Numbered from the stretch's first letter, positions 10,715 through 49,650 are shown. The stretch: 64,000 bases of DNA from an uncultured Acidobacteriota bacterium (GCA_963793695.1 CAWCBB010000008.1:6833-70832); one strand, 5' to 3'. Made by a program: numbers and translations. The notes: generated by a model from the sequence alone, not told the origin.

Positions 10715-10976
10715 GCAGGCTCCGGTCGCCGTACAACGGCCGCAAGTAGTGCCCCGCCCGCCCGAACTGCTCACTGTTGGGATCGGGGCAGTATACGGCC
10801 TGATGTGTCATTCGTCACGAGCTGGTGTGAGGTGACGTGCCTCTCGTGATGAAGTACAGCGCTGCCGAGAGAAAGTTGGCCTCCCTCAGAGCCATGCCTG
10901 TCGGAGGAAAAAGGAAAGCGGATCCGAGACGAGGAGCGTCCGAGGCCCGAGGTCTAAGGTCCAAGGCCTACGGTCG

Positions 10977-12120
10977 CTACCGGTACTTATTCGCGCCGGT
11001 ATTGAACAGGACGACGCGCGCATCGCGGGCGATCGCCGCGCGCTCGAGAAGGAGGCGGAGTCCCGCGAGCGCGGCGCCCCCCTCGGGACCGGCGTCGATC
11101 CCTTCCATCGCGCGGATCTCCGCCGCAGCCGGCTCGATCGACTCCTCCGGCACGGCGACCGCGCCTCCGCGCGACTCGCGGAGCGCCGCGAGCATCAGCC
11201 GGTCGCCCACCGCGCGCGGCACGCGGAGGCCCCAGGCCGCCGTCTTCGGGTTCTCCCACTCGGGCGCATTCTCGAGACCCTGCTCGAAGGCGCGGACGAC
11301 GGGCGCGCACCCGCGCGACTGGATGCTGAACATCCGCGGCCGCTCCGGACCGATCCATCCGAGCCGCTCCATCTCGTCGAACGCCTTCCACATCCCGATG
11401 AGGCCCGTCCCTCCGCCGGTCGGGTAGAGGATCGCGTCGGGCACTCCACCGAGCTGCTCGACGAGCTCGTACGCCCATGATCTTCTTTCCCTCGACGCGG
11501 TACGGCTCCTTGAGCGTCGAGAGGTCGAAGCCTCCCCGCTCGCGCAGCACTTCCTGGACGCGCTTTCCCGCGTCCGTGATGACGCCGCGCACCAGCTCGA
11601 CCTCGGCGCCGTACGAGCGGCACTCGTCGATCATGGACGGCGGCGTGTCGTCCGGCATCGCGATGAACACCGGGACGCCGGCGCGCGCGCCGTACGCCGC
11701 GAGGGCCGATCCGGCGTTGCCCGCGGTCGGCGCGGCCAGGAGCTGCGCGCCGAGGCGGCGCGCCATCGTGACGGCCGCGGCCATGCCGCGCGCCTTGAAC
11801 GAGCGCGTCGGGTTGAGCGATTCGTCCTTGATCAGGAGCCCGTTCATCCCGAGAGAGCGTCCGAGGCGGACCGCCGGCAGCAGGGGAGTGTCGCCTTCCC
11901 CGAGGGTGACGATGTCCCTCTGCGGAACGGGCGGGAGGACCTCGCTCCACCGCCACATCCCTCGCGGGCGCGAGCCGATCCGGGCGCGCAGCGGCGGATC
12001 GAGCCCCAGCTCGTACCGGACCAGGATCGGCGCGCCGCACGCGGGGCAGAGGTTGCGCAGGGCGTCGATCGGGGAGGACCCGTCGCAGACGGAGCAGCGG
12101 AGAAGGGCGGGGAAATTCAT
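10977..12120 (-). CDS. thrC: threonine synthase with an N-terminal Zn-ribbon; one frameshift near nt 11455
   Basis: MNFPALLRCSVCDGSSPIDALRNLCPACGAPILVRYEL...KDESLNPTRSFKARGMAAAVTMA (the PLP-lysine motif), then ...PDAILYPTGGGTGLIGMWKAFDEMERLGW in a second frame. Confidence 0.85.
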
Positions 12121-12184
12121 CGTTGATCGCAGATCCTCGATCGTTGCTTGGTTCTTGGTAGTGGTTGCTGATTGGTCGAAGCGT

Positions 12185-12366
12185 GATGTCATCCCGAGCG
12201 TAGCGAGGGATCCGGGTGGGGGCTGCGAAGAACGCAGCGGCGGTGCAGGGCGCGAAAGCCGGCATTCGCTCTGGCCGAAGGCGAATACCGACCCTCGCGC
12301 CCTCCACGGAGCCCGCGTCACGCGTCTCCCCCCGCCCAGATCCCTCGCTACGCTCGGGATGACATC
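12185..12366. mobile_element. MITE-like element, 182 bp, with 28-bp perfect terminal inverted repeats GATGTCATCCCGAGCGTAGCGAGGGATC
   Basis: The TIRs are at 12185-12212 and 12339-12366. A second, inverted copy lies at 27854-28073 with the same termini and a diverged interior. Confidence 0.65.
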
Positions 12367-12405
12367 CTGCCAGGGCGGCGCGGGAACCGCATCTGGCCGA
12401 CTCGA

Positions 12406-12482
12406 TCGCCGCGCAGATTAACACTCCGCGAGGTCGGAGCGCGGTTTTTCAATCTGCAATCTGCAATCCGCAATCTGCAATA
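12406..12482. repeat. heptamer array family B (AATCTGC x4.5), with a single upstream GCAGATT unit and an internal small hairpin
   Basis: caatctgcaatctgcaatccgcaatctgcaat. The same heptamer arrays occur at 20028-20172 and 49544-49650. Confidence 0.7.
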
Positions 12483-12496
12483 GAAAGAGCCGGACA

Positions 12497-12525
12497 AAGG
12501 CCGGCTTTTTCGAGAGGCGCGTGCG
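12497..12525. terminator. probable bidirectional intrinsic terminator hairpin (AGCCGGACAAAGGCCGGCT followed by TTTTT)
   Basis: A GC-rich stem-loop with a T-run on the plus strand and CTTTCT on the minus strand, directly downstream of the lipoprotein stop at 12534. Confidence 0.5.
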
Positions 12526-12533
12526 GCGCGGCC

Positions 12534-14467: not shown

Positions 14468-14549
14468 CGATCTTCCTTCGAGATTGGCTGGAGGTCAGTA
14501 TCGCACCCGGGGCGGGCGGGGGAAAGGGGAGGGGGGGCAGAGGCAGAGA

Positions 14550-14680
14550 CAAATGCAAAATGCAAAATGCAGAATGCAAAATGAAAAATGCAGAAAGGGC
14601 CCGCGCGACGGTCAGGCCGCGCCCGGCGTGCTCTCGCCCGTTTTTGGACTTTTCATTTTGCATTCTGCATTTTGCATTCG
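14550..14680. repeat. heptamer array family A: inverted pair (AAATGCA)n ... (TGCATTT)n with a 40-nt GC-rich spacer
   Basis: The left arm caaatgcaaaatgcaaaatgcagaatgcaaaatgaaaaatgcagaaaggg and the right arm ccgtttttggacttttcattttgcattctgcattttgcattcg would form a stem of about 30 bp. Confidence 0.8.
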
Positions 14681-14697
14681 TGCGCGGAGCACACGTT

Positions 14698-16585: not shown

Positions 16586-16648
16586 AAACGTTCTTCGTTC
16601 TTCGTTCGTCGACAACGCCTCCGAGAACGGACCACCGCCCGCGACCGT

Positions 16649-18465
16649 TCAGAACCACGGCGTGGTGATCGCGATCGCGGGGATCGCCGCCACGATCCAT
16701 AGGGCGAGAACGGCGAGAGCCGGCGCCAACCGTCGCTGGCGGACGAGCAGCCAGGCTGCCGCCGGGATGCCGAAGAGAACCACGACGCCGGCGAGGGCCA
16801 CGAGCGGGTTTCCCGAGATCCAGCTCGCGAGCGCGGCGACGATGCCGGCGCCCGCGCCGCTGGCGAGGATCCGCAAAAGTCCGGCGGGGCGTTTCAGCCG
16901 CTTTCGTCCCAACGCGTAGATCGCGGACGCGGCCGCGCTGCAGAGGAGCAGGACGCCCGCCGCCCGCCAGGCGTAGGGAATGAGGACGGATCGAAATTCG
17001 AGGGTGTCCGCTCCCGGAGACTTCCGCAGCGCTTCCATCCCCGCGGCCATTCGCGTGAGGTTTCCGCGCGCTTGTTCGTCCAGGCCCTCGACGCGCACGA
17101 GCTCGTCGAGCGAGGAGAAGGGGGAGGCCTTCTGAATGCGCCGCGCCAGGGGGAGATCCACGCCCGGGATCGTGATGAGGTCGACGAGCGATGCTGCGTT
17201 CAGATCGAACGTGTGAGGTCGCGGCAGACCTCGAAACTGATCGAAGAGCGTCGTTCCGGTCGCGAATCCTTCCGCCGCGAGCCAGATCTCGGGCGGAAGT
17301 TCGAGGCTCTGTCCGGGGAAGACTTCGGCGAGTACCGCGGCGATCGCCGGCGCCTCGTCGGGGAATGCCTCGCCGTAGTCGCGGATCAGGGTCCGCGCAT
17401 CGGCCGCCTTCCGCAGCGCGATCACGTGGAAGATCTTCAGGTAGACGTTCTCCAGAGGCGAGACCTCCTCGGCGGATGTTCCGTATCGCCGTAGAACTCC
17501 GGTTCGCGGTACGTCCGCCGAAGGGTCGGGTCGGTCGCCCACCGCCAGAAGAACGTGCTCATCGCCCCTTCGATCGCGAAGAGCTGGGCCGCCGGACGCA
17601 TCGGTTGCGCCGGATCGCCGAGGATGACGCTCTCCATCAGATAGGCGGGATAGGGATCGCCCGACTCGAGCAGACGCTGCGGCACGTCCGGCTCGCGAAC
17701 GAACGCGTTCCGCTTCACCGCGAAGTAGCGGAGCGCGCGCTCGTCGTTGCTGTACCAGACAGGAAATCCGATGCGCATCCGGCCCACGGACGGGATTCGA
17801 GCGGCCAGCTCGTCGCCGTACTGCTCGAGGTGGCGCGTCGCTGCGTCGTCGAGGTCGCGCGCGCGCGAGAGCGCCCGCGTCTCGGGGGCCGCTCCCGCGT
17901 GGTCCACCGCCATCACCTGGAGATGCTCGGCGAACCCTTCGTCGAACGCGACGTAGCGATCCGTCCTCACCCCGACCGCATGCACCTGGTTCGCGCCGGC
18001 CGTGGCCGGCGCCTCCACGCCGAGCTCGTGGAGAATCGCGTGCGCGAGCTCGTGAGGGAAGATCTGGTCCACGGCCCCGAAGCTGCCGTGAAGAGGCCAC
18101 TCGTGGTGGATGTCGATGAAGGGCGTCCCCGGCTTCTTGAGGTCGCCCAGCCAGAAGCCGTAGCGGGGGAATCCGCCCTCCTCGTTGGACAGCAGGAGGT
18201 ATGCGGGCTCGATCCCGCGCCGCGCCCCGATCTGGAGGAACCGGTAGACCCGGAGCATCTCCGCCGCGACGCCGCGGTCGAGGCTCGCGGCGATGCGCGC
18301 GCTCTCGGTGTGCACCGCCAGCACGGGGAGACCCTCGCGCTCCGCGCCGGTCGGGCTCAGCACGACCAGGAGCGGCGGTTCGGCGACCGGCGCCGCGAAC
18401 GCGGCAGCGGAAGGTGTCGCGAGCGGCAGGATCAGGAGGAGGGCTCCAGCGCGCAGGTCCATCAC
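16649..18465 (-). CDS. secreted or membrane protein with a HExxH motif, a C-terminal helix-hairpin-helix and transmembrane helices; one frameshift near nt 17470
   Basis: Signal peptide MMDLRAGALLLILPLATPSAAAFA. Also ...FPHELAHAILHELG..., and in a second frame LNAASLVDLITIPGVDLPLARRIQKASPFSSLDELVRVEGL (HhH) plus 4 transmembrane helices. Confidence 0.65.
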
Positions 18466-18547
18466 AAACCGAGTACGCAGCGACCGGCCGGATGTTTACA
18501 GCGGGCGAAGAACGAAGAACGCCGAACGAAACGAAGGACGCTTCCCC

Positions 18548-20011: not shown

Positions 20012-20027
20012 GGATGGGATAGTGTAA

Positions 20028-20172
20028 TTGCAGATTGCAGATTGCAGATTGCAGATTGCAGATTGTTTTTCCTCCAAAGCGGCGATGGGACTTTGAGGAT
20101 CGGGCACCGATCAGTGATGATGGATGGGGTCGAGGGGTTTCAATCTGCAATCTGCAATCTGAGATCTGCAAT
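20028..20172. repeat. heptamer array family B: (GCAGATT)x5 ... 72-nt spacer ... (AATCTGC)x4
   Basis: ttgcagattgcagattgcagattgcagattgcagattg at 20028-20066 and caatctgcaatctgcaatctgagatctgcaat at 20141-20172. It lies between the GHL10 start (20011) and tRNA-Leu (20180). Confidence 0.8.
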
Positions 20173-20269: not shown

Positions 20270-20502
20270 AGACGAGTCTAGATCGCGAGTCTGCCAAGCA
20301 GTCAAGAGTCGAAGAGAATGAAGAATCTGGAGTCCGGGAGAGGATGATGAGCGGCGGTCCGCCGGCGGATTCGACGATCTGCACTCGGCAATCGTCATTC
20401 GGGCACGTGTGCTGGACCGATCATTCTGACATTCTGCAAAATTCTGCGAATGCGACCGGCGCCGCGGAGGCTCCCCGTCCGGCCCCCAGGAGGCACCTCT
20501 CG

Positions 20503-22162: not shown

Positions 22163-22274
<112 letters not shown>

Positions 22275-22330
22275 AGGTTGGCTGCTCACAGATCTGGCAG
22301 CGAAGCAACCCTCCGTCGACTGCTCCCTGC

Positions 22331-23019
22331 CTACTCCCCCAGGATCGCGTCGGCGCCCGGCGCCTTGAGGTAAAGGCGCCCCACGGCGAGGTCGTCGCTC
22401 CGTACCCTCGCGCGCGGGCCGTGAAGCCCTTCACCCTCAGCAGCGCCACCTTCTTGTAGTGAATCGTGTTCAGCTCCACGTAGACGGGGGTTCCCGCGAA
22501 CCGGCTCACCATGGCGGCCGCCGGCTTCGAGATCGTTCCGGCGAACTCGAGCGCGAGCCGCTGGTACTGCGGGTTTTTCGGGATCGCCGTCGTCGTCCAA
22601 ACGTCCATCGACGACTCCGGCCCCAGCTGGATTCGGTAGCGGAGAGCTTCCAGCCCTCCCACCTTTCCTTTGACCGGCGCGGCGACGGGAAACTCCCCCA
22701 TGCCCGGCATCACTTCCCCCTCGGCGTGCGCGAGCGTGAGGAGCATCGACCGGATCTTCGGGAGCGCCACGTCCGCGTAGAGGCGCGAGAGCGGGCTCAG
22801 GACCGTCACGTGCGGGTCGCCGTTCCGGCTGAACGCGCGGAGGAGAGGGGCCTTCGCCGCGACGCCTCCGGGGTAGAGCGTGATCTCGACCGAGCCGAAT
22901 TTCGAAAGGAAAGGAAACGGGGCGGCGGGGTTCGCCTCGAGCTCGAGCCGGTAGCCGGCGGCCATGAGGGTCGATGGGAGGAGAAGGATCGCGAGGAAGG
23001 GGAGGATGACGCGGTTCAT
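22331..23019 (-). CDS. hypothetical secreted protein; one frameshift near nt 22400
   Basis: Signal peptide MNRVILPFLAILLLPSTLMAAG. There are about 200 aa of clean sequence, then the C-terminus continues in the other frame (DDLAVGRLYLKAPGADAILGE*). Confidence 0.6.
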
Positions 23020-23035
23020 TGTGGAAAGCATACAG

Positions 23036-23248
23036 CGTTCTCCGTTCTCCGTTCTCCGTTGTCCGTTCTCCGATCTCCGTTCGCCGTTCTCCGCGGCACC
23101 TCCCCGCGCCCGCGCCCGAGCCCGGATTCTCTTTCAGTCCGGACGAAACCGCGTCCGAGGTCGCAGTCCACACGATCTGCCGCGGAGAACGGAGAACGGA
23201 CAACGGAGAACGGAGAACGAAGAACGGGGAACGGAGAAACGAAGAACG
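23036..23248. repeat. heptamer array family C: (GTTCTCC)x8 ... 89-nt GC-hexamer spacer ... (GGAGAAC)x9
   Basis: cgttctccgttctccgttctccgttgtccgttctccgatctccgttcgccgttctccg at 23036-23093 and cggagaacggagaacggacaacggagaacggagaacgaagaacggggaacggagaaacgaagaacg at 23183-23248. The spacer contains ccccgcgcccgcgcccgagcccgg. Confidence 0.85.
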
Positions 23249-23338: not shown

Positions 23339-25129
23339 CTAGAACGTCGCGTCGAGGAACGGCCGGAGCTTCTTCGCCCGCGAGGGGTGGCGCAGCTTCC
23401 GCAGCGCCTTCGACTCGATCTGGCGGATCCGCTCGCGGGTGACGTTGAACGAGCGGCCGACCTCCTCGAGCGTGTGCTCGGAGCCCGTCGCCGACGCCGA
23501 AGCGCATCTTGAGGACCTGCTCCTCGCGCGGGGTGAGCGTCTTGAGGACGCGTCGCGTCTGGTCCTGGAGGTTCGAGACGATGACGCGCGTCGATCGGCG
23601 AGACGACGGCGCGGTCCTCGATGAAGTCGCCCAGGTGCGAATCTTCCTCCTCGCCGATCGGCGTCTCGAGGGAGATCGGCTCCTGCGCGATCTTCATGAT
23701 CTTGCGGACCTTGGAGACCGGCATGTCCATCCGCTTGGCGATCTCCTCGGCGTTCGGCTCGCGGCCGAGCTCCTGGACGAGCGAGCGCGAGGTGCGCGTG
23801 AGCTTGTTGATCGTCTCGATCATGTGGACCGGGATGCGGATCGTGCGCGCCTGGTCGGCGATCGCGCGGGTGATCGCCTGGCGGATCCACCACGTCGCGT
23901 ACGTCGAGAACTTGTAGCCGCGGCGGTACTCGAACTTCTCGACCGCCTTCATCAGGCCGATGTTGCCTTCCTGGATGAGGTCGAGGAACTGGAGGCCGCG
24001 GTTCGTGTACTTCTTCGCGATCGAGACGACGAGGCGCAGGTTGGCGACGATCAGCTCCTGCTTGGCCTGGTCGGCCTCCTCCTCGCCCTCGCGGACCTCG
24101 CGGAGCGTCTTCTTGATCGTCCTCGTGCGAGACGCCGAACTTCTGCCTCGAGCTCGCCGAGGCGCTCGCCGGTACTTGGCGATGCGGCGCTTGTAGAAGT
24201 CGCTTGCGGGTGCGGTTCTTCTCCCTCTTGAGCGACTGCTCGTCCTGGCGGATCTGGGAGTTCGGGCAGCGAGAACTGCGGTCGATGTCCTTGAGGATGT
24301 TGATCATCCGGTTCAGCGTCTGCGGGGTGAAGTCGACCGCGCGGATCAGCTTCGCCATCTCGCGAGAGCTTCTCGATCTGTTTGACGAGCCCGGCGGGCT
24401 GCGGGGCTTCTTGGCGGCCTCGATCAGCTTCGCGCTGGCTGTCCTTGATCTTCTCGGTCGAGCTTGCGCGATCTTCTTGAAGATCTTCGAGGATCTCCTC
24501 GATCTTGTTGAGGTTCTTCGCGTCGTTCGGATCGTCTTCCTCGTCGTCCGCGAGCGCGAGGTCGATCATGTCCTTGATGACCTTCGTGGTCCTTCTTGGC
24601 GTTCTCGAGACGGAGGATCTCTTCGAGAACGATCCGGTTCTTCGAGAGCGCCTGGTAGATCCTGCCCTCGCCCTGCTCGATCCGCTTGGCGATTCGACCT
24701 CGCCCTCGCGGTCGAGGAGCTTGACCGTCCCCATCTCGCGCAGGTACATGCGCACGGGGTCGTTCGTCTTCTCGATCAGCCCGGCGGCCGCCGCGGCGAT
24801 CTCCGCCTGGATCTCTTCCCGCTCGCTGACTTCCTTGTCCTCGACCCCATCGGTCGGGCTTCTTTCGGCTCGGGGATCTTGTCGACGTCGTCGACGACCT
24901 CGATCCCGACGTCCGCGAAGCGGATGTAGATCTCGTCGAGCTCTTCCGGGGTGCTGGTTACGTCTTCCGGGAGGATCTCGTAGATCTCGTCGTAGAGCAG
25001 GTATCCCTTTTCCTTGCCGATCGTGATGAGCTGTTTGACTTCCGGGTATTTGTCTTCGACGCTGAGCTCGCCAGCCTCATCGTATGAAGATTCCAGATCG
25101 AGATCCGTTGTCCGCAGACGGGTGCTCAT
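23339..25129 (-). CDS. rpoD: RNA polymerase sigma-70 (primary sigma factor); about 6 frameshifts
   Basis: Segments in three frames: [49 protein letters not shown] (region 1.1), [21 protein letters not shown] (region 1.2), [46 protein letters not shown] (region 2), MRFGVGDG, and [41 protein letters not shown] (region 4). Confidence 0.8.
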
Positions 25130-25295: not shown

Positions 25296-27044
25296 TTATT
25301 TCAGCGGGTGAAGCCGTCGGGAGAGCTCGATTTTTTCGCGATCCAGCGCCTGCTCCCGCTCCCCGTCTCCAGCTTCGCGCATTGCCTTGATCTCTGAAGT
25401 GATTTCCTTCAGTCGGCGGTCCAGAAAGCGTCGCTCCATCAGACGGACGGTGTCTCCGATTGAATTTGGTGAGTCGAGCTCCTTCTCGTCAGGCGCGATG
25501 GCAAGTTCGGAGAGTCTCGTCAGCTGCGATTCCCCCCTAAGATCGGTCGCAATCACAGAAAAATCAAGGGGTTGGCCCTCGCGCGCCCGCTCGGCGACCG
25601 CTCGGAAGATCGACCGGCAGTCGGCGTCGTCGAAATACTCCTCCCGGAGGTCCGCCAGCTCGCGCTTCGGGTCGGCGGCGTGGAGCAGCGCCCGGAGGAC
25701 CTCTTTCTCCCCGGTGGAGACCGGCGCGACGACCCCCTTCTCCCGCGAGCCCGCGTCGGGACCTCCCCCCGTCCGGACGCGCGACCAGACCGACGAGAAC
25801 TCCAGCCCCATCCGGTCGGCGACGCGTTGCGCGGCGTCATTCCGGAGGACCGGGTCGGACACGGCCGCGACGAGAGGGACGAGCGCCTCGACGGCCTCGC
25901 TCTTTTCCGCGCCTCGCATCGCCGCGGGATTCGGGGCGATGCGCCGCAGCGCGAAGTCGAAGACGTCGTCCGCGTTGCCGAGCAGCTCGATGAACGCGTC
26001 GAGCCCTTTCTTCCGGAGGAAGGTGTCGGGATCCTCGGAGGCGCCGACGTCGACCACCTCGACCTGCAGCCCCGCCGACAGCAGGATCGGAGCCGCCCGG
26101 AGCGTCGCGCCGCGTCCCGCCTCGTCGCCGTCGTAGGCGACCACGACCCGCTTCGCGAGGCGGCGCATCATCGCGGCCTGGCCGGTCGTGAGCGAGGTCC
26201 CCATCGAGGCGACCACCCCGTCGATCCCGGCGTTGTCGAGCGCGATGCAGTCGAAATATCCCTCGACGAGGATCGCTCGATCGAGCCGCCGCATCGCGTC
26301 GCGCGCGCGATGGAGGTTGTACAGGAGCCGCGACTTGTTGAAGATCTCCGACTCGGGCGAGTTGAGGTATTTCGGGTCGCTCCCGTCGAGCGTCCGCCCC
26401 CCGAAGCCCACGATGCTCCCGCCCTCGGAGTGGATCGGGACGATCAGCCGGTTGCGGAACCGGTCGTAAAAGCCGTCGCCGCTCTTTCGCGGCAGGACCA
26501 GCCCCGCCTCCTCCAGCTGCCTGGGCTGGAACTTCCGCCCCAGCCGCTTGAGGATGTAGTCCCACGAATCGGGCGCGTAGCCGAACCCGTACTTCCGCCA
26601 CAGCTCGGGGTCCACCTCGCGCTTCGTGAGATAGCTTTCCGCCGCGTTCGGCGTCCAGCCCAGCGCCTGATGGAACGCGCCCGCCGCTTCCTCGATCGCC
26701 TCGAGAAGGTTCTCCTTCCCGCTCTCGGACGCCTTCTCCTTCCGGCGGGGGAGCGCGATCCCCGCGCGGGTCGCGACGTACTCGACGGCCTCGGGGAAGG
26801 TGTACCGCTCGGTCAGCATCACGAACTTGAAGACGTCGCCCCCCGTGCCGCAGCCGAAGCAGTAGAAGAACCCTTTGTCCCGATCGACGTGGAACGAGGG
26901 GGTCTTCTCGCGGTGGAAGGGACAGAGCCCCTTGTGGCTCTTCCCCGCCTGCTTCAGAGGCGTGTGCTGCGAGATGATGTCGACGATGTCCGCGGCGCCG
27001 CGCACCTGCGAGATGATCGCGTCATTGAGATCGACGAAGGCCAT
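25296..27044 (-). CDS. dnaG: DNA primase
   Basis: A clean 582-aa ORF with a Zn finger (CPFHREKTPSFHVDRDKGFFYCFGCGTGGDVFKFV), a TOPRIM domain (LVEGYFDCIAL...VVAYDGDEAGRGA) and a C-terminal helicase-binding domain. Confidence 0.9.
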   Translation of the reverse strand: MAFVDLNDAIISQVRGAADIVDIISQHTPLKQAGKSHKGLCPFHREKTPSFHVDRDKGFFYCFGCGTGGDVFKFVMLTERYTFPEAVEYVATRAGIALPRRKEKASESGKENLLEAIEEAAGAFHQALGWTPNAAESYLTKREVDPELWRKYGFGYAPDSWDYILKRLGRKFQPRQLEEAGLVLPRKSGDGFYDRFRNRLIVPIHSEGGSIVGFGGRTLDGSDPKYLNSPESEIFNKSRLLYNLHRARDAMRRLDRAILVEGYFDCIALDNAGIDGVVASMGTSLTTGQAAMMRRLAKRVVVAYDGDEAGRGATLRAAPILLSAGLQVEVVDVGASEDPDTFLRKKGLDAFIELLGNADDVFDFALRRIAPNPAAMRGAEKSEAVEALVPLVAAVSDPVLRNDAAQRVADRMGLEFSSVWSRVRTGGGPDAGSREKGVVAPVSTGEKEVLRALLHAADPKRELADLREEYFDDADCRSIFRAVAERAREGQPLDFSVIATDLRGESQLTRLSELAIAPDEKELDSPNSIGDTVRLMERRFLDRRLKEITSEIKAMREAGDGEREQALDREKIELSRRLHPLK

Positions 27045-27059
27045 GGCGAGTAGTCAGGG

Positions 27060-27437
27060 AGCAGTAGTCAGGGGGAAGGGTACAACGGACGAAATCGCCG
27101 TTGGAAACGGATGAAGCCGCGGCAGGATTTCGAGGGCTGGTTCCGGGCCTGCAGGTTGAAGCGATCCGACGTGACGGCTCCCTCACGGGGAGGCCGGAGC
27201 TCGCCTGGTGTCGGAATGGCGCGAAACTGCTATGCGCGTCAGCGCGCGATCGACTTCACGAGCGAACTCATTGCTGCGGTAGCGCTCCGCTCAAGATACC
27301 AGTCTGTCGCGAGCAGCAACTCGGCTCTCGCTGAGGGATGAAAGCTAACGCTTCTCTCTTGTTTCGATACCAAGCCCGTTCGTGTTCGATTTCGAAGGGA
27401 CAGCGCGCCTCTTCGAAGAATCGAAGACGCGGGCTCA
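27060..27437 (-). pseudogene. ParE/RelE-family toxin-like gene, badly frameshifted (multiple indels)
   Basis: The minus strand from ATGA at 27437 reads MSPRLRFFEEARCPFEIEHERAWYRNKREALAF.. Fragments such as AELLLATDWYLER and EILPRLHP resemble the ParE core and its ..EILRVLHGARD C-terminus. Coordinates are approximate. Confidence 0.35.
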
Positions 27438-27673
27438 TCGATCAGATCGGTAGAGCTGGGCGCGAAGCTCTTGCCAGGAGACCGTCTTCACGCGTCCTGC
27501 GTCGAAACTCAGCCATTCGGTTCTCGACCTCGGACTGCCCATGCCTGCTCGATCTCGTCGGTTGGTCCGCTGCCCTCGTCGAGACTTTCGAGAAGAAGCG
27601 CCTCAAGTTCCGCCCGGTCTTCGGGTGCCAGCTCCGATGCGCGTTCGTACAGGTCTTGGATCGCCCGGTTCAT
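27435..27673 (-). pseudogene. addiction-module antitoxin-like small protein (TIGR02574-type) with 2 frameshifts
   Basis: MNRAIQDLYERASELAPEDRAELEALLLESLDEGSGPTDEIEQAWA in one frame, .EVENRMAEF in a second, and DAGRVKTVSWQELRAQLYRSDR* in a third. The stop overlaps the downstream toxin-like ATG. Confidence 0.45.
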
Positions 27674-27853
27674 GCTCGCATTCTACTCGCGCGCTCGGAT
27701 GATCGGCCAGGCCGCCCAACGGTTTGCCGCTGAGCCGCGGCCACCGCGCGCGAGAAAGTATAGATCTCGGAAGGCAGTAACGCAGCGGTTGGCGCGCGGT
27801 GCAGCGGCCGAGTTCGACGCAATGGCCTTAAGGTAAGCGATGGTTTCGACGAC

Positions 27854-28073
27854 GATGTCATCCCGAGCCCTCACGTCGCGCTTCGCGCTCCTCAGGGCAG
27901 GCTCCGCGAGGGATCTGGGCGGGTGGGTTACGCGTGACGCGGCACCGAAGCACGGCGGCAGGATCGAGATTCGCCTGCGATCACGAAGCGAATGCCGATC
28001 CTGCCTGCCCTGCACCGGCGCCGCGTTCTTTCGCAGCCCCCGCCCAGATCCCTCGCGTACGCTCGGGATGACA
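27854..28073. mobile_element. second, inverted copy of the MITE-like element (termini GATGTCATCCCGAGC... / ...GATCCCTCGCGTACGCTCGGGATGACA)
   Basis: It has the same 28-bp termini as 12185-12366. The interior is about 70% similar (acgcgtgacgcgg...gcgaatgccg...ccctgcaccg.cgc.gcgttctt). Confidence 0.6.
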
Positions 28074-29164
28074 GCTTCGACGGGCAACTCGCGTTAAGTT
28101 AAGGCCATTGGAGTTAGACGGCGCCCACATGCCTCGTGGCCTCTTCGCGTCGGTTGAGATAAACAGCTACCGCAGGTAGAACCGACCAGGGCGAGAACCA
28201 CATAGAACATCGCTGAGATACCGGAATGACGACAAAGAGCTGCGTGACCGTAACCGAGATACAGGCCGCAGTAGAAGCAGTCGTACAGTGCAAGCGGCGC
28301 GCTGAGAGTTGCAGCGCCAGACCGAGCTCGCTCGCGAAACCGGGGCTGATTGGAATCGGAAGAATGCTGCCGGTGACCGCGCCGAAACGCTGCGTCCGGA
28401 ATCGCTTCTAACGGCGTGGGCACGGCATTTTGGCGGGCCGCGGCCCCTGCAAGCGATCGAGTTAGCGGTGACCTGCACTTCCCCTTCTCGGCCTCAGGAA
28501 GGCTCCCACGGAGTCGCGCACCGGTACCAATGGGGCGACGAAGAAGGCGGGAGCGCGTCGCCCGCAGCGCAGGATCGCCTGGAGAGCGCAGGGACTGCAG
28601 GCTGAGCCGCGATCCTCGCGGAGCCTCCCCGAGGGGCGGCACGATAGGCCGGCGACGGCGAAAGCATCTACGCGCGCTAGAACGCCGGTCGCAGCCACCA
28701 TGAAGCGCTCCAAACCGCGGAATACGGGAACGGAAGCGTGTAAACGGTCAGAGCAGAAGGCCACCGCAGCTCCGCCATCCTGGACCTGAGCGTTCACCTG
28801 CGCGATGGTGCCGGCAGCATAGGTGAGAAGCAAGGAGCCAGCGTCGCAGCTCAGCGTTCTGCCCGCCGGTCATGCTGCGCGAATTAGGCCGTCGTCTGGT
28901 CAGTGCGATTGGTCGGCCTGACTATTCATCCATGGATTACCGGGACCGAGGATATCTGGGACGAGTTGTGCCACGTGTATCCTCGGAGGCCCTGATTCGA
29001 AGATTCTACCGCTACCAGTTCAGCTGGTGAGGGTTCCGGTGGGGCGACGAGCTCGTCGTTCGGGTCTGTTCGGACCGATTCGGTCGCGTATCCCGTCGCC
29101 GGCGGAGCGGGCGCGGTGGGGCCGGGCAGTCGATCCGCCGGCCGCACTTCCCGGCCGCGGGTTC

Positions 29165-29292
29165 GTTCCTCACTTGCGTGTAGATCAGGTCGTCGTCAGA
29201 TCGGCGTGTCGAGAAGCTTCTGGACCGTCAGGATGTCGTACCGGTCCTCGTGTGCTGCGCGATGACGTCCTTCGGTTCGCGGAAAACGAGAG
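29165..29292 (-). pseudogene. tyrosine recombinase (phage-integrase family) C-terminal fragment, 5'-truncated and frameshifted
   Basis: The minus strand reads ..GRHRAAHEDRYDILTVQKLLDTPI* and, one frame over, DDDLIYTQV. This matches the ..RHTfA..L...G.DI.TVQ.LLGHsd..TT.IYTHV box II/catalytic Tyr region. Nothing upstream, because the mutS2 stop is at 29315. Confidence 0.4.
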
Positions 29293-29294
29293 GC

Positions 29295-31681: not shown

Positions 31682-31727
31682 GAGTCGGGAGTCGGGAGTC
31701 TGTCGGGAGTCTCGAGTCGAAAGTCTT
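31682..31727. repeat. family D heptamer array (GGGAGTC)x4-5 abutting the mutS2 start codon
   Basis: gagtcgggagtcgggagtctgtcgggagtctcgagtcg. On the mRNA strand this is (GACTCCC)n immediately 5' of ATG, with no canonical SD. Confidence 0.75.
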
Positions 31728-31893
31728 GAGCCGGAGCGAAGTCTACGACACGTAGGGCCGCGTTGCGCGCGGCCGCTCTCCGGTCGGATCAGGATCTAAA
31801 CCCGGGGGAACGACCGCACGCAGTGCGGCCCTACGGGCAAAAGCAAACGGACCCCAGATGCGGGGTCCGTTCAGAGATTCGCTGTTCGCGGGA

Positions 31894-33006: not shown

Positions 33007-33105
33007 GATCGTCGTTGATCGTTGATCGTAGATCGCTAAGTGAAGAAAGAGAGGTTGCCGGGGCAATGACTGCAAGACCGACGATCGAAACAAACGACCA
33101 ATCGA

Positions 33106-33270: not shown

Positions 33271-33350
33271 CAGGCGAAGAATAACAGGAAGAGCCGGGGC
33301 CGCACAGTGCTTTGGATCCGCCGGTTTTCCGTTTTCCGATTGCTCCCACC

Positions 33351-35064: not shown

Positions 35065-35099
35065 CGAGTTCAGTCTAACGGAACGCCGCCTGCGGCGGC

Positions 35100-35215
35100 G
35101 AAATGCAAAATGCAGAATGCAAAATGTAAAGTCCCCAAAGGCGGTCGCCGGGCGGTCTCCTTTTTGGATTTTTCATTTTGTATTTTGCCCGGGTCCGAGA
35201 TCCGAGGTCCGAGGT
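35100..35215. repeat. heptamer array family A inverted pair (AAATGCAAAATGCAGAATGCAAAATG ... CATTTTGTATTTTGC), followed by (TCCGAGR)x3
   Basis: The arms are at 35100-35135 and 35157-35188, and tccgagatccgaggtccgaggt is at 35191-35215. It is intercistronic, 35 bp upstream of the squalene-synthase-like start and just after the oxidoreductase stop. Confidence 0.8.
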
Positions 35216-35230
35216 GCATTTTTCTTCTGA

Positions 35231-36409
35231 TCACGAGGCCGGCCCGAGCGGCGGAACCTTCATGTGCGTGTCCCGCGCCCGGCACCAGTGCGCGCCCGGC
35301 TTGTGCTGGCACGAGCCCCTCTGTCGCCAGAGCGCGCGCACCACGGGCGCCGCGAGCCGCTTCCACCAGCGGTCCTGGTGCCACGCGGAGAGATACGCGT
35401 TGAAGTCCTTCGCCTTCGCCGCCTGCCGCACGAAGGACGAGAGGCCGAAGTTTCCGCCTCGCTCGTAGAGAAAGCGGTTGACGAGGCTCGTCCGCTGCTT
35501 CGCGCCGAGCTCGGCTTCCCACAGCTCGTCGAACGAGCGCTCCTCGAGGATCGATCGCGCGGCGAGCCACCCGCTCTTGAGCGCGTAGCGGATGCCGAGG
35601 CCGAAGAGGTAGTCCTGAAAGCCGGCCGCCTCGCCGGCGTAGCGGGCGTTGCCCGAGACCGCCGTGCTCTTGAGGTGGAAGTTCATGTACGAATAGCCGG
35701 TCTTCCGGTCGCGCCCCAGCTCGACGGCGCGGATGCTCTGCGCGCGCGCGAGCGAAGCGTCGAAGTACTCGTCGATCCGCTTGAAGTCGGACACGATCGC
35801 GCAGCCGAACGTCCCGACCCCGTCGAGGATGAAGAGGTACGAGTAGCCGCCGGGGGAGAGGCGGTGATCGAAGTAGACCTCGACGCGCTCCTGCTCGTCG
35901 GACGAGAAGGTGATCTCCTTGGCCAGGCCGTCGGGACTCGCCGGGCCGGTGGCGACGATGTCGGCCTCTTCGGGCTCGAGCCGGCTTCCGAACCGGACGT
36001 CGACGCCGAGGGCCCGGGCCTGCGCGAGAAGGCCGCGGTCGAGCGAGCCGTCGAAGGGGCCGCGGCGGATGAAGAAGCCGTACGGGGTCGCCGCCTTCAC
36101 CTCGTGCGGCGTAGGGGCGGCCTGCGGCCGCCCGGAACCTGGGTCGAGCGACGGCGCGTAGAAGCGCGCTTCGGTCACGGGGCGGAAGTAGAAGTTCCGC
36201 TCGATCCCGATCCGGTCGAGGAAGGCGCGGACGTCCTCCGCCTCCGACGAGTTCTCCAGGATCTGGAGGTCGCCGATGAAGCGCGCGCCGACGTCGCTCT
36301 TCGCCTCGTGGACCTCGACGCGCCGTCCGCCGCGCGCGAGCGTGATCGCCGCGGCCAGTCCCGCCGGCCCGGCGCCGGCGATGCGGATCGGATCGAGGGA
36401 GCTTGTCAT
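35231..36409 (-). CDS. FAD-dependent oxidoreductase (geranylgeranyl-reductase-like family)
   Basis: MTSSLDPIRIAGAGPAGLAAAITLARGGRRVEVHE (a Rossmann GxGxxG fold), clean. Confidence 0.75.
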   Translation of the reverse strand: MTSSLDPIRIAGAGPAGLAAAITLARGGRRVEVHEAKSDVGARFIGDLQILENSSEAEDVRAFLDRIGIERNFYFRPVTEARFYAPSLDPGSGRPQAAPTPHEVKAATPYGFFIRRGPFDGSLDRGLLAQARALGVDVRFGSRLEPEEADIVATGPASPDGLAKEITFSSDEQERVEVYFDHRLSPGGYSYLFILDGVGTFGCAIVSDFKRIDEYFDASLARAQSIRAVELGRDRKTGYSYMNFHLKSTAVSGNARYAGEAAGFQDYLFGLGIRYALKSGWLAARSILEERSFDELWEAELGAKQRTSLVNRFLYERGGNFGLSSFVRQAAKAKDFNAYLSAWHQDRWWKRLAAPVVRALWRQRGSCQHKPGAHWCRARDTHMKVPPLGPAS

Positions 36410-40454: not shown

Positions 40455-40457
40455 TCA

Positions 40458-40582
40458 AAAAAATGCAAAATGCAGAATGCAAAATGAAAAATACAAAAAG
40501 GGCGTGATGCTCACGTCTCGCAGGAAAGCCCCGATTCCCTCCTCTTTTTGTGTTTGACATTTTGCATTTTGCATTCTGCATT
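40458..40582. repeat. heptamer array family A inverted pair
   Basis: aaaaaaatgcaaaatgcagaatgcaaaatgaaaaatacaaaaaggg ... cctctttttgtgtttgacattttgcattttgcattctgcatt, between oppF and the tolC-like gene. Confidence 0.85.
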
Positions 40583-40795
40583 GGGCCGCCGAAGGCGGTC
40601 GTTCGCTTTCAGCGCCCCCCTCCACCCGCTACAATGTCGCCGGCCCCGGTTCCGGCCGCGAAACTCTTCCATTCGTTCGTCGTATCCCGTAAAGGAAGTC
40701 CGCTCCCCCATCGGAGCGGCGTTTCACGGCCGCCGCGCGGGTCGAAACCGAAACCTGCCGGATGGGTACAAAGGCTCGGTCCAGGAGGAACTTGC

Positions 40796-44581: not shown

Positions 44582-44590
44582 AGGCGTTTC

Positions 44591-44717
44591 CCGTTCTCCG
44601 TTCTCCGTTCTCCGGAAACCAAGGGCCTCTGGCGTGCGTACAGGAGAATGGACGAAAAGCCGGGCCCGGGCCCGGGCGCGGGTGGGGGCGGAGAACGAAG
44701 AACGGAGAACGAAGGAC
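44591..44717. repeat. heptamer array family C inverted pair (GTTCTCC)x3 ... (GGGCCC)n spacer ... (GAGAACG)x4
   Basis: ccgttctccgttctccgttctccgg, a spacer with gggcccgggcccgggcgcgggtggggg, then gcggagaacgaagaacggagaacgaaggac. It lies between the macA-like and macB-ATPase genes. Confidence 0.8.
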
Positions 44718-44734
44718 GCCTCTCCAGGAATGAC

Positions 44735-45430: not shown

Positions 45431-45550
45431 GGGTCTGGGAGTCTCGGCGTCTGGGGAGTCGCTTCGCCTATACCCGTGATTCATGTCTCTATGGCTCGAA
45501 CCGCTCAGGTGCAGACTCTGTATTGGCCGAGGCCTAGTCTCCTAGACGCC
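45430..45550. repeat. family D inverted pair (GGGTCTGGGAGTCTCGGCGTCTGGGGAGTC ... CTAGTCTCCTAGACGCCTAGACTTCCAGACGCG)
   Basis: Intercistronic between the macB ATPase stop and the permease start (45568). Confidence 0.65.
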
Positions 45551-45567
45551 TAGACTTCCAGACGCGC

Positions 45568-46794: not shown

Positions 46795-46821
46795 GGGCGC
46801 CCTGCGGGCGCCGCGGCCCTG

Positions 46822-46900
46822 CGGAGAACGAAGAACGAAGAACGGGCGCGCGCAGCGCGCCCCTACGATGACGAAATCGGTCTTGCCGATTTCGTCATTT
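46822..46900. terminator. composite 3' region: a GAGAACG heptamer array, a REP-like palindrome (46844-46866) and a perfect 11-bp hairpin GACGAAATCGG-tcttgc-CCGATTTCGTC
   Basis: It lies between the convergent macB permease (+) and efp (-) genes. gcggagaacgaagaacgaagaacgg is adjacent to the REP. Confidence 0.5.
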
Positions 46901-47452: not shown

Positions 47453-47658
47453 CGGTCAGCCCTTCTTTTCTGAGGTTGCGCGCCGCGCGCGGCGGCCACC
47501 CACGTCCGTCGCGCCAAACCGGCGCGGAGAAGGAGGTTATTCCGGGTGGCATCGGACGCGGACCCTGGGACCGATGGGGCGGATCGGTCTGGCGTCCTCA
47601 TGAGGAGGAAGCTGGCATCCTTCCGGTGACGCCCGTTACGCGACTTCGGCGGGGACGC

Positions 47659-47664
47659 GCTACA
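47659..47664 (+). promoter_or_regulatory. candidate -10 hexamer (TACAAT) in the divergent efp/pilT intergenic region
   Basis: cgcgcTACAATcctcg, about 60 nt upstream of the pilT GTG start. No clean -35 was found. Confidence 0.2.
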
Positions 47665-47722
47665 ATCCTCGTAACTTTCCAGCGTATTTTGGGCCAACAA
47701 CGGAAACATCCGAGGTGATTCG

Positions 47723-48903
47723 GTGCACATCAACGACCTTCTGAAGATCGCCGCCGAGCGGCGCGCGTCCGACCTCCACATCAAGGTCGGCTCCCATCCC
47801 GTCATCCGCGTCGACGGCGAGCTGATCCCGCTCGTCGAGCTCAAGCGCCTCATGCAGGAAGACACCATCGCGATGGCGTTCTCGATGATGTCCTCCCGGC
47901 AGAAGGAGAAGTTCAAGAACAACTTCGAGATCGACTTCGCCTACTCGGTCCCCGGCCTCGGCCGGTTCCGCTGCAACATCTTCCAGCAGCGCGGCACGGT
48001 CGGCCTCGTCCTCCGCGTCATTCCCGGTGAAGATCAACTACGATCCGCGAGCTGATGCTCCCGAACATCCTCGAGAAGATCTGCGAGGAGCGGCGCGGGC
48101 TGATCCTCTGCACCGGGACGACGGGCTCGGGCAAGTCGACCACGCTCGCGGCGATGATCGACTACATCAACTCGCACCGCACCGAGCACATCATCACCGT
48201 CGAGGACCCGATCGAGTTCCTCCACCGCGACAAGAAGTCGATCGTCAATCAGCGCGAGGTCGAGGTCGACACGAAGAGCTTCTCGCAGGCCCTCCGCTCG
48301 GCCCTCCGCCAGGACCCCGACGTCATCCTCGTCGGCGAGATGCGCGACTACGAGACGATCGAGACGGCGCTGACCGCCGCCGAGACCGGCCACCTCGTCC
48401 TCTCGACGCTCCACACCCTCGACGCGACCGAGACGATCAACCGCATCATCTCCGTCTTCCCGCCGCACCAGCAGAAGCAGATCCGCCTGCAGCTCGCGGC
48501 CGTCCTCAAGGCGGTCGTCTCGCTCCGCCTCCTCCCGCGCGCGGACGGTCTGGGCCGCGTGCCGGCGGCCGAGGTCCTGATCAGCACGAACTACATCCGG
48601 GACTGCATCGAGAACAAGGAAAAGACGAAGCTGATCAAGGACGCGATCACGCAGGGGACCTCGCAGTACGGGATGCAGACGTTCGACCAGTCGATCTACA
48701 CGCTCTATCGCAACGGCCTGATCACCCTCGACGAGGCGCTGCGCCGCGCCACGAACCCGGACGAGTTCAAGCTCAAGATCCAGGGCGTCCAGTCGACCTC
48801 CGACATTGCGCGCGAGGAGATGGACGGGCAGCTCAAGGTCGCCTCCGACAACGATCCGTTCAGCGAGGAGTCGCCGTTCGATTTCGGGAACCAGCTGCCG
48901 TAG
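47723..48903 (+). CDS. pilT: type IV pilus twitching-motility ATPase PilT; one frameshift near nt 48030
   Basis: GTG start after GAGGTGA. MHINDLLKIAAERRASDLHIKVGSHPVIRVDGELIPL... Second frame: LILCTGTTGSGKSTTLAAMIDYIN...VEDPIEFLHRDKKSIVNQREV...MQTFDQSIYTLYRNGLITLDEAL. Confidence 0.85.
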
Positions 48904-48933
48904 GGCAGCTGGTTCCTGAACGCGCCTGCGGCG

Positions 48934-49034
48934 CAAATGCAAAATGCAAAATGCAAAATGAAAAATACAAAAAGGGGCTGATGCCATAATCCCCCTTTTG
49001 GACTTTTCATTTTGCATTTTGCATTTTGCATTTG
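48934..49034. repeat. heptamer array family A inverted pair with a near-perfect 40-bp stem and a 13-nt loop
   Basis: caaatgcaaaatgcaaaatgcaaaatgaaaaatacaaaaagggg ctgatgccataat ccccttttggacttttcattttgcattttgcattttgcatttg, between pilT and recX. Confidence 0.9.
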
Positions 49035-49041
49035 TCTTCTG

Positions 49042-49545
49042 ATGGCGATGTCCGACCAATCTCCCGAGGACCGCTGCTACCACGCCGCCCTCCGCCTGCT
49101 CGGCTACCGCTTCCGGAGCGAGGCCGAGCTGCGCAAGCGGCTCCGCGAGAAGGAGCACGAGGCCGAGGCGATCGACACGGCGCTCGCGCGGCTCCGCGGC
49201 GAGGGTTGGATCGACGACGCCCGGTTCGCGAGCGTGCTCGCCGAATCGAAGAGCCGGAAGGGAATCGGCCCGAAACGCGTCGGGCTCGAGCTGCGGCGCC
49301 TCGGCGTCGACGACGAGATCGCGGGCGCAGCCATCCACGGCGCCGATCCGGAGACGGCCGAGAGCGACCTTGCCTCCCTCGTCCGGAAGCGCATCCGGAT
49401 CCTCGGCCGCAGCCACGGTCCCGGATGGGTGCCCGGCGAAGGACGACCGAAAGAAATTGCTGGTGTATCTGTTACGGCAGGGATACGAGTACGCCGCCGC
49501 CGGTCAGGCGCTCGACGCAGGCCTCGAAGAAGGGACGCGATTGTT
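49042..49545 (+). CDS. recX: regulatory protein RecX; one frameshift near nt 49420; the 3' end is uncertain because the reading frame runs into the heptamer array
   Basis: MAMSDQSPEDRCYHAALRLLGYRFRSEAELRKRLREKEHEAEAIDTALARLRGEGWIDDARFASVLAES..., then DDRKKLLVYLLRQGYEYAAAGQALDAGLEEG in a second frame. Confidence 0.7.
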
Positions 49546-49650
49546 GCAGATCGCAGATTGCAGATTGCAGTTGGAATCGCCGCATGATTCCGAACGACAT
49601 GGCGAACGTCCGAGCGATGGTTTCAATCTGCAATCTGCGACAATCTGCAA
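49544..49650. repeat. heptamer array family B inverted pair, (GCAGATY)x4 ... 50 nt ... (AATCTGC)x3, ending 10 nt before the alaS ATG
   Basis: ttgcagatcgcagattgcagattgcag ... tcaatctgcaatctgcgacaatctgcaag. Confidence 0.8.

Follow-up and report, generated by a model that had tools for sequence, protein, structure and literature searches.

Heptamer-armed palindromic elements between the genes of a Thermoanaerobaculia genome

Introduction

Intergenic arrays of short tandem units, arranged so that two arrays on opposite strands face each other across a short gap, have been described in Geobacter and Xanthomonas; here, we analyze arrays of this kind, built from 7-nucleotide (nt) units and referred to as heptamer elements, in a 64,000-nt stretch of DNA from an uncultured bacterium of the phylum Acidobacteriota (GCA_963793695.1, CAWCBB010000008.1:6833-70832; hereafter, the window). 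The paired sites of Geobacter metallireducens fall into classes 1 to 3, with four units of GTTGCTYN, three of TCTCCGTS[Y], and five of MTYCTGA, respectively; two of these classes were called "evolutionarily related," the sites were drawn as a loop, and some lie within operons (proB-proA). Their authors read them as putative binding sites for IHF/HU or a global regulator (Aklujkar et al. 2009, PMC2700814). In Xanthomonas and Nostoc, arrays of GGGAATC or GGGGAYT heptamers prefer about four units, and each Xanthomonas genome holds 70 to 75 convergent inverted pairs. The Xanthomonas arrays lie 0 to 50 bp from stop or start codons, with the C-rich strand as the sense strand upstream of open reading frames (ORFs), and among sister species array length and sequence vary while pair-or-single status is mostly kept (Rehm et al. 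2015, PMC4692102).

Heptamers also occur more widely. As cited in PMC4679880 and PMC4692102, Mrazek et al. (2007) reported heptamers as the most abundant 5- to 11-nt repeat in prokaryotes and proposed slippage. These repeats and the short tandemly repeated repetitive (STRR) heptamers of cyanobacteria (Mazel et al. 1990, likewise as cited) are noncoding, with several heptamer families per genome. In marine Beggiatoaceae, cyanobacteria, and Bacteroidetes, start codons can be preceded, at a distance of a few nucleotides, by direct repeats of TAACTGA, and Shine-Dalgarno (SD) sequences are rare in these genomes (MacGregor 2015, PMC4679880). Heptamers have thus been recorded as the dominant long simple repeat of prokaryotes since 2007, and their paired versions were reported from Geobacter in 2009 and from Xanthomonas in 2015.

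The elements analyzed here are a very dense case of this already described architecture, and they add evidence that families descend from one another, that elements disperse and decay, and that a spacer has inverted. Our preferred explanation, to which we assign a probability of roughly 0.55, is that they are short dispersed intergenic palindromes resembling repetitive extragenic palindromes (REPs) and bacterial interspersed mosaic elements (BIMEs) or MITEs (miniature inverted-repeat transposable elements), that their arms grow by slippage in steps of 7 nt, and that they act mainly as hairpins.

Period-7 arrays between the genes of the window

The host is a metagenome-assembled genome of the class Thermoanaerobaculia, as judged from the names of its close relatives by DnaG, and a soil-type bacterium; the DnaG of the window is 100% identical to a protein encoded on a 223-kb contig, and the window has a G+C content of 63 to 70%. 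We compared it with syntenic loci L119 and L207 (one genome, DnaG 89% identical), L120 to L122 (88%), L123 (76%), and L204 to L206 (60 to 64%). Called genes of these loci were mapped onto the window to give the gene map from 14.7 to 38.2 kb, and most other genes were named by Pfam. Arrays of every period were called by the same criterion, at least 15 matches in 17 comparisons, and 20 dinucleotide-preserving shuffles of the window served as the control.

By this criterion, the window holds 19 arrays of period 7, one of period 6, one of period 12, and none of periods 4, 5, or 8 to 11; the shuffles average 0.05 arrays at period 7. In the output of Tandem Repeats Finder, over 25 rows with period 7 fall in the interval from 10.9 to 49.7 kb, and scores reach 95. 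The period-7 arrays of this window are genuine and striking, and they lie where an earlier reading of this DNA (the sequence-only reading) had put them. They are spread over 18 or more intergenic loci within this interval of 10.9 to 49.7 kb, so the count of at least 13 given in that reading holds. Its placement of the arrays outside coding sequence is also borne out: 59 of 65 arrays, counted over the window and the six related loci, share at most 6 nt with called genes, with genes covering 81 to 94% of the related loci and, by a partial gene list, 62% of the window. Typically, an arm starts 1 to 30 nt past a stop codon or stops 0 to 30 nt ahead of a start codon or tRNA, and elements fill all of the space that separates a stop codon from the start codon or −10-like box that follows. 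Arrays are found equally right behind stop codons and within operons.

Direct reading of the units gives the five families of the sequence-only reading, A (AAATGCA), B (GCAGATT), C (GTTCTCC), D (GGGAGTC), and E (TCCGAGG; 35192 to 35217, and a degenerate array at 10937 to 10975), and further units, (ACGATCA)n at 33009 and (CGTTCTT)/(CGAAGAA) at 16587 and 18506. Eight clean inverted pairs are present: four A, two B, and two C. The first A pair (14548 to 14679; arms at 14548/14650) consists of (AAATGCA)6, a 59-nt GC-rich core, and (TGCATTT)4 between the Smr stop codon and the start of a GTPase gene. The second (35098 to 35130 and 35162 to 35188) lies between crtI-like and crtB genes and is followed by the E array, (GGTCCGA)3, the whole extending from 35098 to 35217. 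The third (40459 to 40583; arms at 40459/40553) begins 4 nt past the stop codon of an oligopeptide ABC ATPase gene, upstream of a TolC-like gene, and the fourth (48933 to 49036; arms at 48933/49002) lies downstream of a pilT-like stop codon (48903), with a small GC hairpin ahead of it. One B pair, (ATTGCAG)6, a 70-nt spacer, and (CAATCTG)4 (20025 to 20168; arms at 20025/20138), is bordered by the start of GHL10 (20011, minus strand) on one side and by tRNA-Leu (20180) on the other and is kept at this site in L120 and L207; the other (49544 to 49661; arms at 49544/49624) adjoins the start of alaS (ATG at 49660). The C pairs are (GTTCTCC)8, a 92-nt spacer with (CCCGCG)n and then a T-run, and (GGAGAAC)9 between the rpoD terminator and the start of hyp228 (23033 to 23248; arms at 23033/23182), and a pair within the macA-macB operon with termini GAGGCG...CGCCTC and a spacer of (CCGGGC)n and a T-run on the antisense strand (44585 to 44718; arms at 44585/44689). 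Families D and E occur mostly as single or degenerate arms.

The gap between detected arms is 31 to 92 nt in the window and 7 to 159 nt over the 56 pairs of all loci, a wider range than the 50 to 90 nt first given. Adjacent arrays of the same family across all loci form 56 inverted and 16 direct pairs. Median arm length is 34 nt (4.9 units, or about five copies), with an interquartile range of 30 to 37 nt. All eight clean pairs fold into long hairpins (30 to 60 bp), at −39 to −141 kcal/mol versus −17 to −75 for shuffles. An Rfam scan of the window returned only tRNA-Leu above gathering thresholds and no match for the heptamer elements.

Comparison with described repeat classes

The heptamer elements qualify as prokaryotic long simple sequence repeats (LSSRs), namely, tandem units of 5 to 11 nt beyond chance expectation, predominantly of 7 nt, in noncoding DNA. 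They also have the features of the Geobacter and Xanthomonas paired sites: convergent arrays on opposite strands, a variable short gap, about three to five units, and differences between species at the same site. The class had been described before, in the paired 7- to 9-mers of G. metallireducens (PMC2700814) and the roughly 70 GGGAATC pairs per Xanthomonas genome (PMC4692102), and the sequence-only reading was mistaken in not recognizing it as a described one.

The likeness to Geobacter extends to the presence of three to five tandem 7- to 9-mers on opposite strands at variable distance, to several classes per genome in intergenic DNA, and to sister species with a different sequence at the same spot; Geobacter, however, belongs to another phylum, and its units are mostly 8 to 9 nt long. 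The Xanthomonas pairs follow the same placement rules with respect to ORFs as the elements here, and the unit of family D, GGGAGTC, is one base from GGGAATC and is placed likewise. Xanthomonas nevertheless has one dominant G-rich family, discussed as forming G-quadruplexes, whereas the many families found here are mostly not G-rich, so G-quadruplexes cannot be the common denominator. We dropped the overlap of individual units with published families (Geobacter class 2 contains the C unit as TCTCCGT; GGGAATC), since by our estimate about four matches at one mismatch or less are expected and the overlap is within chance.

LSSRs and STRRs are described as direct arrays, and palindromic pairing and common nonrepeat arm ends fall outside their definition. 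The TAACTGA repeats share a position close to start codons, as several arrays here run into an ATG and an SD-like 4-mer precedes only 33 of 88 genes (gene starts of L119 to L206); they differ in being almost all direct (one indirect among 169 sets) and in having a single unit (PMC4679880).

Distribution in the lineage

As a background set, we used 919 kb of loci from mixed phyla, distant matches of a metagenome scan with MacB. In the 117 kb of the six related loci, 35 arrays have period 7 (about 0.3 per kb), compared with 19 in the 919 kb of background, where periods 8 and 9 yield 3 to 5 arrays. The trait is lineage-wide in Thermoanaerobaculia. A literature search found no paper connecting Thermoanaerobaculia with heptamers. 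An exact 21-mer of AAATGCA units is found at more than 118 loci in many phyla; we dropped it as a special cross-phylum signal because such a number is expected from general heptamer density and only about 1,170 unit classes.

The same comparison bears on whether the arrays arose in assembly or sequencing. The window contains many frameshifted housekeeping genes, which suggest an indel-prone assembly, but the same families and architecture occur in independent NCBI, JGI, and ENA assemblies (L119 to L123 and L204 to L207) and in more than 118 genomes, so this explanation is refuted for practical purposes and its residual probability is negligible.

Families of related elements

Copies within a family share more than their units. 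The arms of the four A copies can be aligned over about 45 nt each (AAATGCAAAATGCAGAATGCAAAATGAAAAATCCAAAAAGGGG), the order of variant units is conserved, and the arms have a conserved nonheptamer inner end (...AAAATGAAAAATCCAAAAAGGGG) adjoining a GC-rich core that is particular to each copy. The A-rich arm is 5' in 30 cases and 3' in 3 across all fetched loci. In C copies, the termini are alike (GAGGCG...CGCCTC), the inner ends agree (CCGCGGCA/TGCCGCGG), and the core consists of (CCCGSG)n and then CCGGNTTTTC; this anatomy is seen at 23033, at 44585, at L119 13792, at L119 5706, and in L207, that is, at three or more unlinked sites. The sequence TTTCAATCTGCAATCTGC... is common to the B copies. 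Each family keeps one fixed arm arrangement, and in A and C the complementarity of the arms reaches into the nonheptamer flanks. Because copies have common arm ends and cores, the families are dispersed homologous elements rather than simply local microsatellites.

The families are also related to each other. The Thermoanaerobaculia loci contain 32 unit classes; of the 496 pairs that these make, 21 are a single substitution apart, whereas about 8.7 are expected. The resulting links connect A to GAATGCA and GAATGCA to B, the C variants to one another, and E through AACTCGG to the ACTCAG* group. GAATGCA is a variant unit within A arms that lies one substitution from B, and in L119 it forms a full family of its own, so the families are not all "unrelated," as the sequence-only reading had described them. 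Since the units form a one-substitution network, their shared period can be inherited. Palindromic cores of 4 to 5 nt (TGCA, GANTC, CTNAG, GATC) were considered as a unifying feature and dropped, being present in 20 of 32 families when 55% is expected.

Higher-order structure is visible in two relatives. In L207 (3832 to 4290), three tandem copies are present of a unit of about 65 nt that includes a complete C left arm, and arms of (GTTCTTC)n/(GAAGAAC)n enclose (GTTCTCC)n/(GGAGAAC)n arms. In L123 (19318 to 19620), a unit of about 95 bp, arm included, is duplicated. Separately, the sole period-6 array of the window, GCCCGA/GCCCGC in about 13 units (22194 to 22276), lies within the coding region of hyp228, and its hexamer motif is the one that forms the core of C elements.

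These observations can be set against an origin as purely local microsatellites, in which each array would go back to a 7-nt duplication that arose by chance and was extended on the spot by slippage, and pairs would persist as hairpin DNA that is selected or tolerated, with no copying between loci. Such an origin would account for the different unit numbers of orthologous arrays, it agrees with the heptamer excess seen across prokaryotes both in the literature and in our mixed-phyla loci, and a 9-mer pair (described below) and the hexamer run indicate that other periods are able to arise. Identical units nonetheless recur at many unlinked sites in several genomes, A arms share variant-unit order and a nonheptamer inner end, C copies share termini and core, and one arrangement is kept per family. 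We therefore consider purely local growth unlikely.

Turnover at orthologous sites

The sites occupied by heptamer elements change quickly. Between the rpoD terminator and the segment from −17 to the ATG of the next gene, the window has a C pair with 8 to 9 units per arm and L119 a C pair with 4 to 5, while L120 and L122 carry an inverted pair of a 9-mer, (GATAGGACC)n. Between crtI and crtB, an A pair is present in the window and in L119, L123 has 67 nt without an array, and the genes overlap in L204 to L206; compared with L119, the E array in this gap takes the place of part of one A arm. Directly past the Smr stop codon, the window has an A pair, L207 has (GACTCCC)5, and L120 has (CATTCAA)n, and against the PRK ATG the (ACGATCA)n of the window corresponds to (GACTCCC)n in L119. 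Upstream of mutS2, dnaG, and GHL10 and around tRNA-Leu, where arrays are present in the window, the units are particular to each lineage. Turnover is thus fast: genomes about 88 to 89% identical in flanking proteins differ by family, by a 9-mer version, by a truncated arm, or by an empty site.

The C spacer at 23094 to 23181 (88 nt), which bears a one-directional terminator-like motif, lies in the opposite orientation to the flanking genes compared with its counterpart in L119 (13826 to 13917); once flipped, 78 of 88 bases are identical. A flipped spacer is the expected product of recombination between inverted arms, and the sequence fits recombination between the heptamer arms.

Loss is seen around a comEA-like gene. 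In L207, large nested C palindromes flank this gene on both sides, and the window retains only their outermost arms: (CGTTCTT)3 at 16587 to 16612, 1 nt past the stop codon of a 158-amino-acid gene and left over from a nested C-type palindrome that is intact in L207, and (CGAAGAA)n at 18506 to 18528, between the comEA-like start and the GHL10 stop. Because L207 has two separate complex C elements at these positions, both window arms are deletion remnants. The intervening segment (16586 to 18547; 1.95 kb, with a gene of about 600 amino acids of the ComEA family, HHH_3) separates convergent genes whose distance in L120 and L123 is 8 nt; L207 also has this segment, and in a more distant relative, L208, the comEA-like gene is placed elsewhere. 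A cargo transposon, with the inverted arrays at 16587 and 18506 around a lineage-specific 1.95-kb insertion, was considered and dropped in view of the two separate C elements of L207.

Turnover is also relevant to a role as protein-binding arrays, in which the heptad would be a site for a nucleoid protein, a global regulator, or a ribbon-helix-helix (RHH) protein and paired arrays would serve to form DNA loops or bends close to promoters. The narrow array size of about five units and the many arrays that stop 0 to 30 nt ahead of start codons or −10-like boxes are as such a role would predict, and it is the reading that the Geobacter authors gave to the same architecture. However, one lineage contains at least 12 unit sequences, and sister genomes have different units at the same promoter, so that a regulon would need constant rewiring. 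Arm complementarity extends to nonheptamer flanks, arrays lie equally past stop codons and within operons, and no cognate regulator gene adjoins the elements. The omega repressor of plasmid pSM19035 is an RHH protein that polymerizes on contiguous 7-bp heptads of one consensus; the many unit sequences and their rapid swapping argue against RHH operator or centromere arrays here, and the scanned window proteins gave no RHH match, with no search aimed at RHH made. Binding arrays are, in our assessment, distinctly unlikely.

Possible functions

The elements probably act as terminators, insulators, or 3'-end stabilizers, like REPs, and beyond that would be selfish DNA that the genome tolerates. 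A terminator-like pattern is matched by three of the four A cores (14604 to 14590, 35143 to 35157, and 40515 to 40503), the cores being followed by CCTTTTTGG. As the A-rich arm is always 5' in these copies, both strands present the order A-tract, GC stem, T-tract, and the A cores accordingly look like bidirectional intrinsic terminators, with a GC stem and T-run between A-rich and T-rich arms. Terminator-like matches are also present in the spacer of the C pair at 44585 (44675 to 44660) and in hairpins beside single arms (12488 to 12506 and 46844 to 46862). The total of such patterns between 30.4 and 50.3 kb, 11, does not exceed that of shuffles, 10.3. Promoters made by the arrays were considered and dropped, as no sigma-70-like match was found; RNA-level strand selection via G-U pairs likewise found no support.

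In many genes, TAnnnT or −10-like boxes lie 7 to 17 nt ahead of the ATG (in the window, for example, at 20012 to 20030, 23019 to 23045, and 35065 to 35085), which explains how arrays can adjoin start codons. Together with the scarcity of SD-like 4-mers, this suggests that leaderless or short-leader mRNAs are frequent in the lineage.

Origin of the elements

Under the preferred reading, that of dispersed palindromes, arrays would lengthen and shorten through replication slippage in a 7-nt register, a bias already noted across prokaryotes. A mutated unit, once amplified, could found a new family, and if families arise in this way, then the common period is inherited and not reinvented. Whole palindromes would be copied to new intergenic sites by some route, with no visible target duplications; deletions would leave single arms behind; and the likely effect would be exerted through hairpins in DNA or RNA.

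Several known elements invite comparison. REPs, BIMEs, and REPINs are likewise short extragenic palindromes at gene ends and in operons, form inverted doublets, and have proposed roles in termination and mRNA stabilization, and different families of them occupy the same intergenic site in related species. A REP is an imperfect palindrome of 20 to 40 nt with a conserved GTAG or CGTC tetranucleotide as its head, and such repeats often flank the gene of a REP-associated tyrosine transposase (RAYT). The heptamer elements differ in lacking a GTAG/CGTC head and in being built of tandem units, and no RAYT is found among the scanned proteins. MITEs are marked by terminal inverted repeats, a target-site duplication, a related autonomous insertion sequence, and a conserved internal sequence; in the heptamer elements, C has inverted termini (GAGGCG/CGCCTC) and a shared core, and the cores of A are unrelated to one another.

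Several points weigh against this reading. No mobilizing enzyme was found among the scanned window proteins, and no related insertion sequence was seen in the window. At C and A boundaries, no target-site duplication is recognizable and no clean empty or filled boundary is definable. The unrelated cores of A copies are unusual for MITEs or REPINs, and near-identical copies of the kind that point to recent transposition are lacking among the elements compared. Arms are no more similar within an element (31.4) than between elements (31.0), and the lengths of paired arms show no correlation in the 56 pairs (r = 0.05), so homogenization between arms is not demonstrated. When each strand was folded as RNA for 11 pairs whose gene direction is known, the transcribed strand was favored in 6 and not in 5, and an RNA-level role therefore stays unproven. 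Elements are found inside operons (macA-macB, crtI-crtB) and not only at operon ends. Finally, this reading does not account for the 7-nt length of the unit. Concerted evolution between arms was also considered and dropped, the parallel difference in the C pair at rpoD (8 to 9 units in one genome versus 4 to 5 in the other) being only anecdotal.

The sequence-only reading had favored a single heptamer-generating mechanism, and part of this stands. Period and architecture were not independently invented, as indicated by the one-substitution network, the common ends and cores, and the lineage-wide occurrence, and polymerase slippage, one of the mechanisms it named, fits the bias toward 7-nt units already proposed in the literature (Mrazek et al. 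2007, as cited in PMC4679880 and PMC4692102). The part that found no support is a dedicated enzyme. A templated repeat-synthesis enzyme (reverse transcriptase- or telomerase-like), a recombinase that recognizes array geometry, or a Y1 transposase could write or move the arrays, and this would fit the uniform period and architecture across families and the quick replacement at fixed positions near gene ends. GTAG-headed REP doublets, the usual RAYT substrates, are present in the genome, one of them encloses a C array, and by this token a RAYT may exist elsewhere in the genome. Yet a scan of about 40 window proteins found no transposase, RAYT, reverse transcriptase, or primase-polymerase and only the housekeeping DnaG, which is weak evidence, as the scan covered 64 kb only. 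The heptamer elements have no GTAG/CTAC head, and the single-substitution links among units fit mutation and amplification better than templating. A 9-mer version exists as well, and because this inverted pair occupies an orthologous site in a sister genome, a strict heptamer machine is unlikely; we regard a dedicated machine of any of these kinds as very unlikely.

A broader proposal, to which we likewise give little credence, is that heptamer-armed palindromes form a distinct, phylum-spanning class of mobile hairpins (Acidobacteriota, Desulfobacterota, Xanthomonas, cyanobacteria) inserted beside stop and start codons by a trans-acting enzyme, with the step of about 7 nt arising from the enzyme mechanism. 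If so, flipping spacers would be invertible terminator or promoter modules.

Whatever their origin, the elements are unusually rich in Thermoanaerobaculia, with an array density of about 0.3 per kb, 12 or more families, site differences at about 89% identity, nested and truncated forms, and a flipped spacer. This richness makes birth, spread, and decay traceable by comparative genomics and provides concrete sites for terminator and insulator assays.

Single arms and other features of the window

Arms without a partner are frequent, contrary to the claim that all families occur as inverted arm pairs; in addition to the arms beside the comEA-like gene and the E array at crtB, they are as follows. 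A degenerate E-type array (GTCCGAG GCCCGAG GTCTAAG GTCCAAG ...; 10937 to 10975) is a single arm just past the stop codon of a PALP-domain gene (10977, minus strand). A B remnant at 12414 to 12481 consists of one GCAGATT unit with a small hairpin and then the single array (CAATCTG)5, at 12446; the terminator-like hairpin at 12488 to 12506 comes next, and the element lies downstream of a gene ending at 12534 (minus strand). The D array, (GACTCCC)n on the sense (minus) strand of the gene, extends from 31676 to 31720 and runs into the mutS2 ATG at 31681. On the sense strand, (ACGATCA)n at 33009 to 33036 adjoins the ATG of the PRK-family kinase gene (33006), and two CGGAAAA units at 33310 to 33340, also on the sense strand, are the remnant of a C arm; L119 has the left arm and core of this element, which the window has lost by deletion. 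The only D-like inverted pair (GGAGTCT.../...AGACTCC; arms at 45431 to 45460 and 45533 to 45566), which reaches from the stop codon of the macB ATPase gene to the ATG of the permease gene, is degenerate, with a period of 7 to 8. Decayed D-like (GAGTCNN) and A-like (CATTCTG) units were read directly at 20270 to 20450, between tRNA-Leu and an acyl-CoA dehydrogenase gene. A single C-type array, GGAGAAC GAAGAAC GAAGAAC (46821 to 46846), is enclosed by the two arms of a GTAG-headed REP doublet (46795 to 46862).

This REP family is clearly distinct from the heptamer elements of the window. Its GC-rich palindrome, GTAGGGGCGCGCTGCGCGCGCCC, is found at 1908 to 1983, 29296 to 29314, 31751 to 31835, and 46795 to 46862, in three exact copies and variants that often form inverted, REPIN-like doublets; nine matches occur at three mismatches or fewer, versus 0.9 expected. 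One copy supplies the stop codon of mutS2. A 182-bp element lying upstream of the PALP-domain gene and having inverted arms of 38 nt, 95% complementary (12185 to 12222 and 12329 to 12366; GATGTCATCCCGAGCGTAGCGAGGGATC...), represents a different repeat family, possibly a MITE. Between mutS2 and dnaG, a 2.27-kb stretch (27045 to 29314) whose ORFs have no Pfam match is missing in L119, which has 142 bp there.

Gene annotation is affected in several ways. A called 67-amino-acid ORF in L120 (9444 to 9647; "hyp67") spans an A pair, and its "protein" matches all A elements of the window (14551 to 14695, 35097 to 35273, 40456 to 40597, and 48932 to 49054), which indicates that the palindromes create spurious ORF families. 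In practice, the elements yield false ORF calls and may mislead gene-start prediction and assembly. Compared with intact orthologues, reading frames are split in rpoD (23342 to 25129), nadA (about 15528), the acyl-CoA dehydrogenase gene (about 20985), the pilT-like gene (47723/48055), alaS (49660 onward), and the comEA-like gene (16649 to 18465), which points to an indel-prone, probably long-read, assembly and not to real pseudogenes. A "tRNA-???" with a 4-base anticodon, called by ARAGORN inside dnaG (26072 to 26165) and lacking Rfam support, is almost certainly a false positive.

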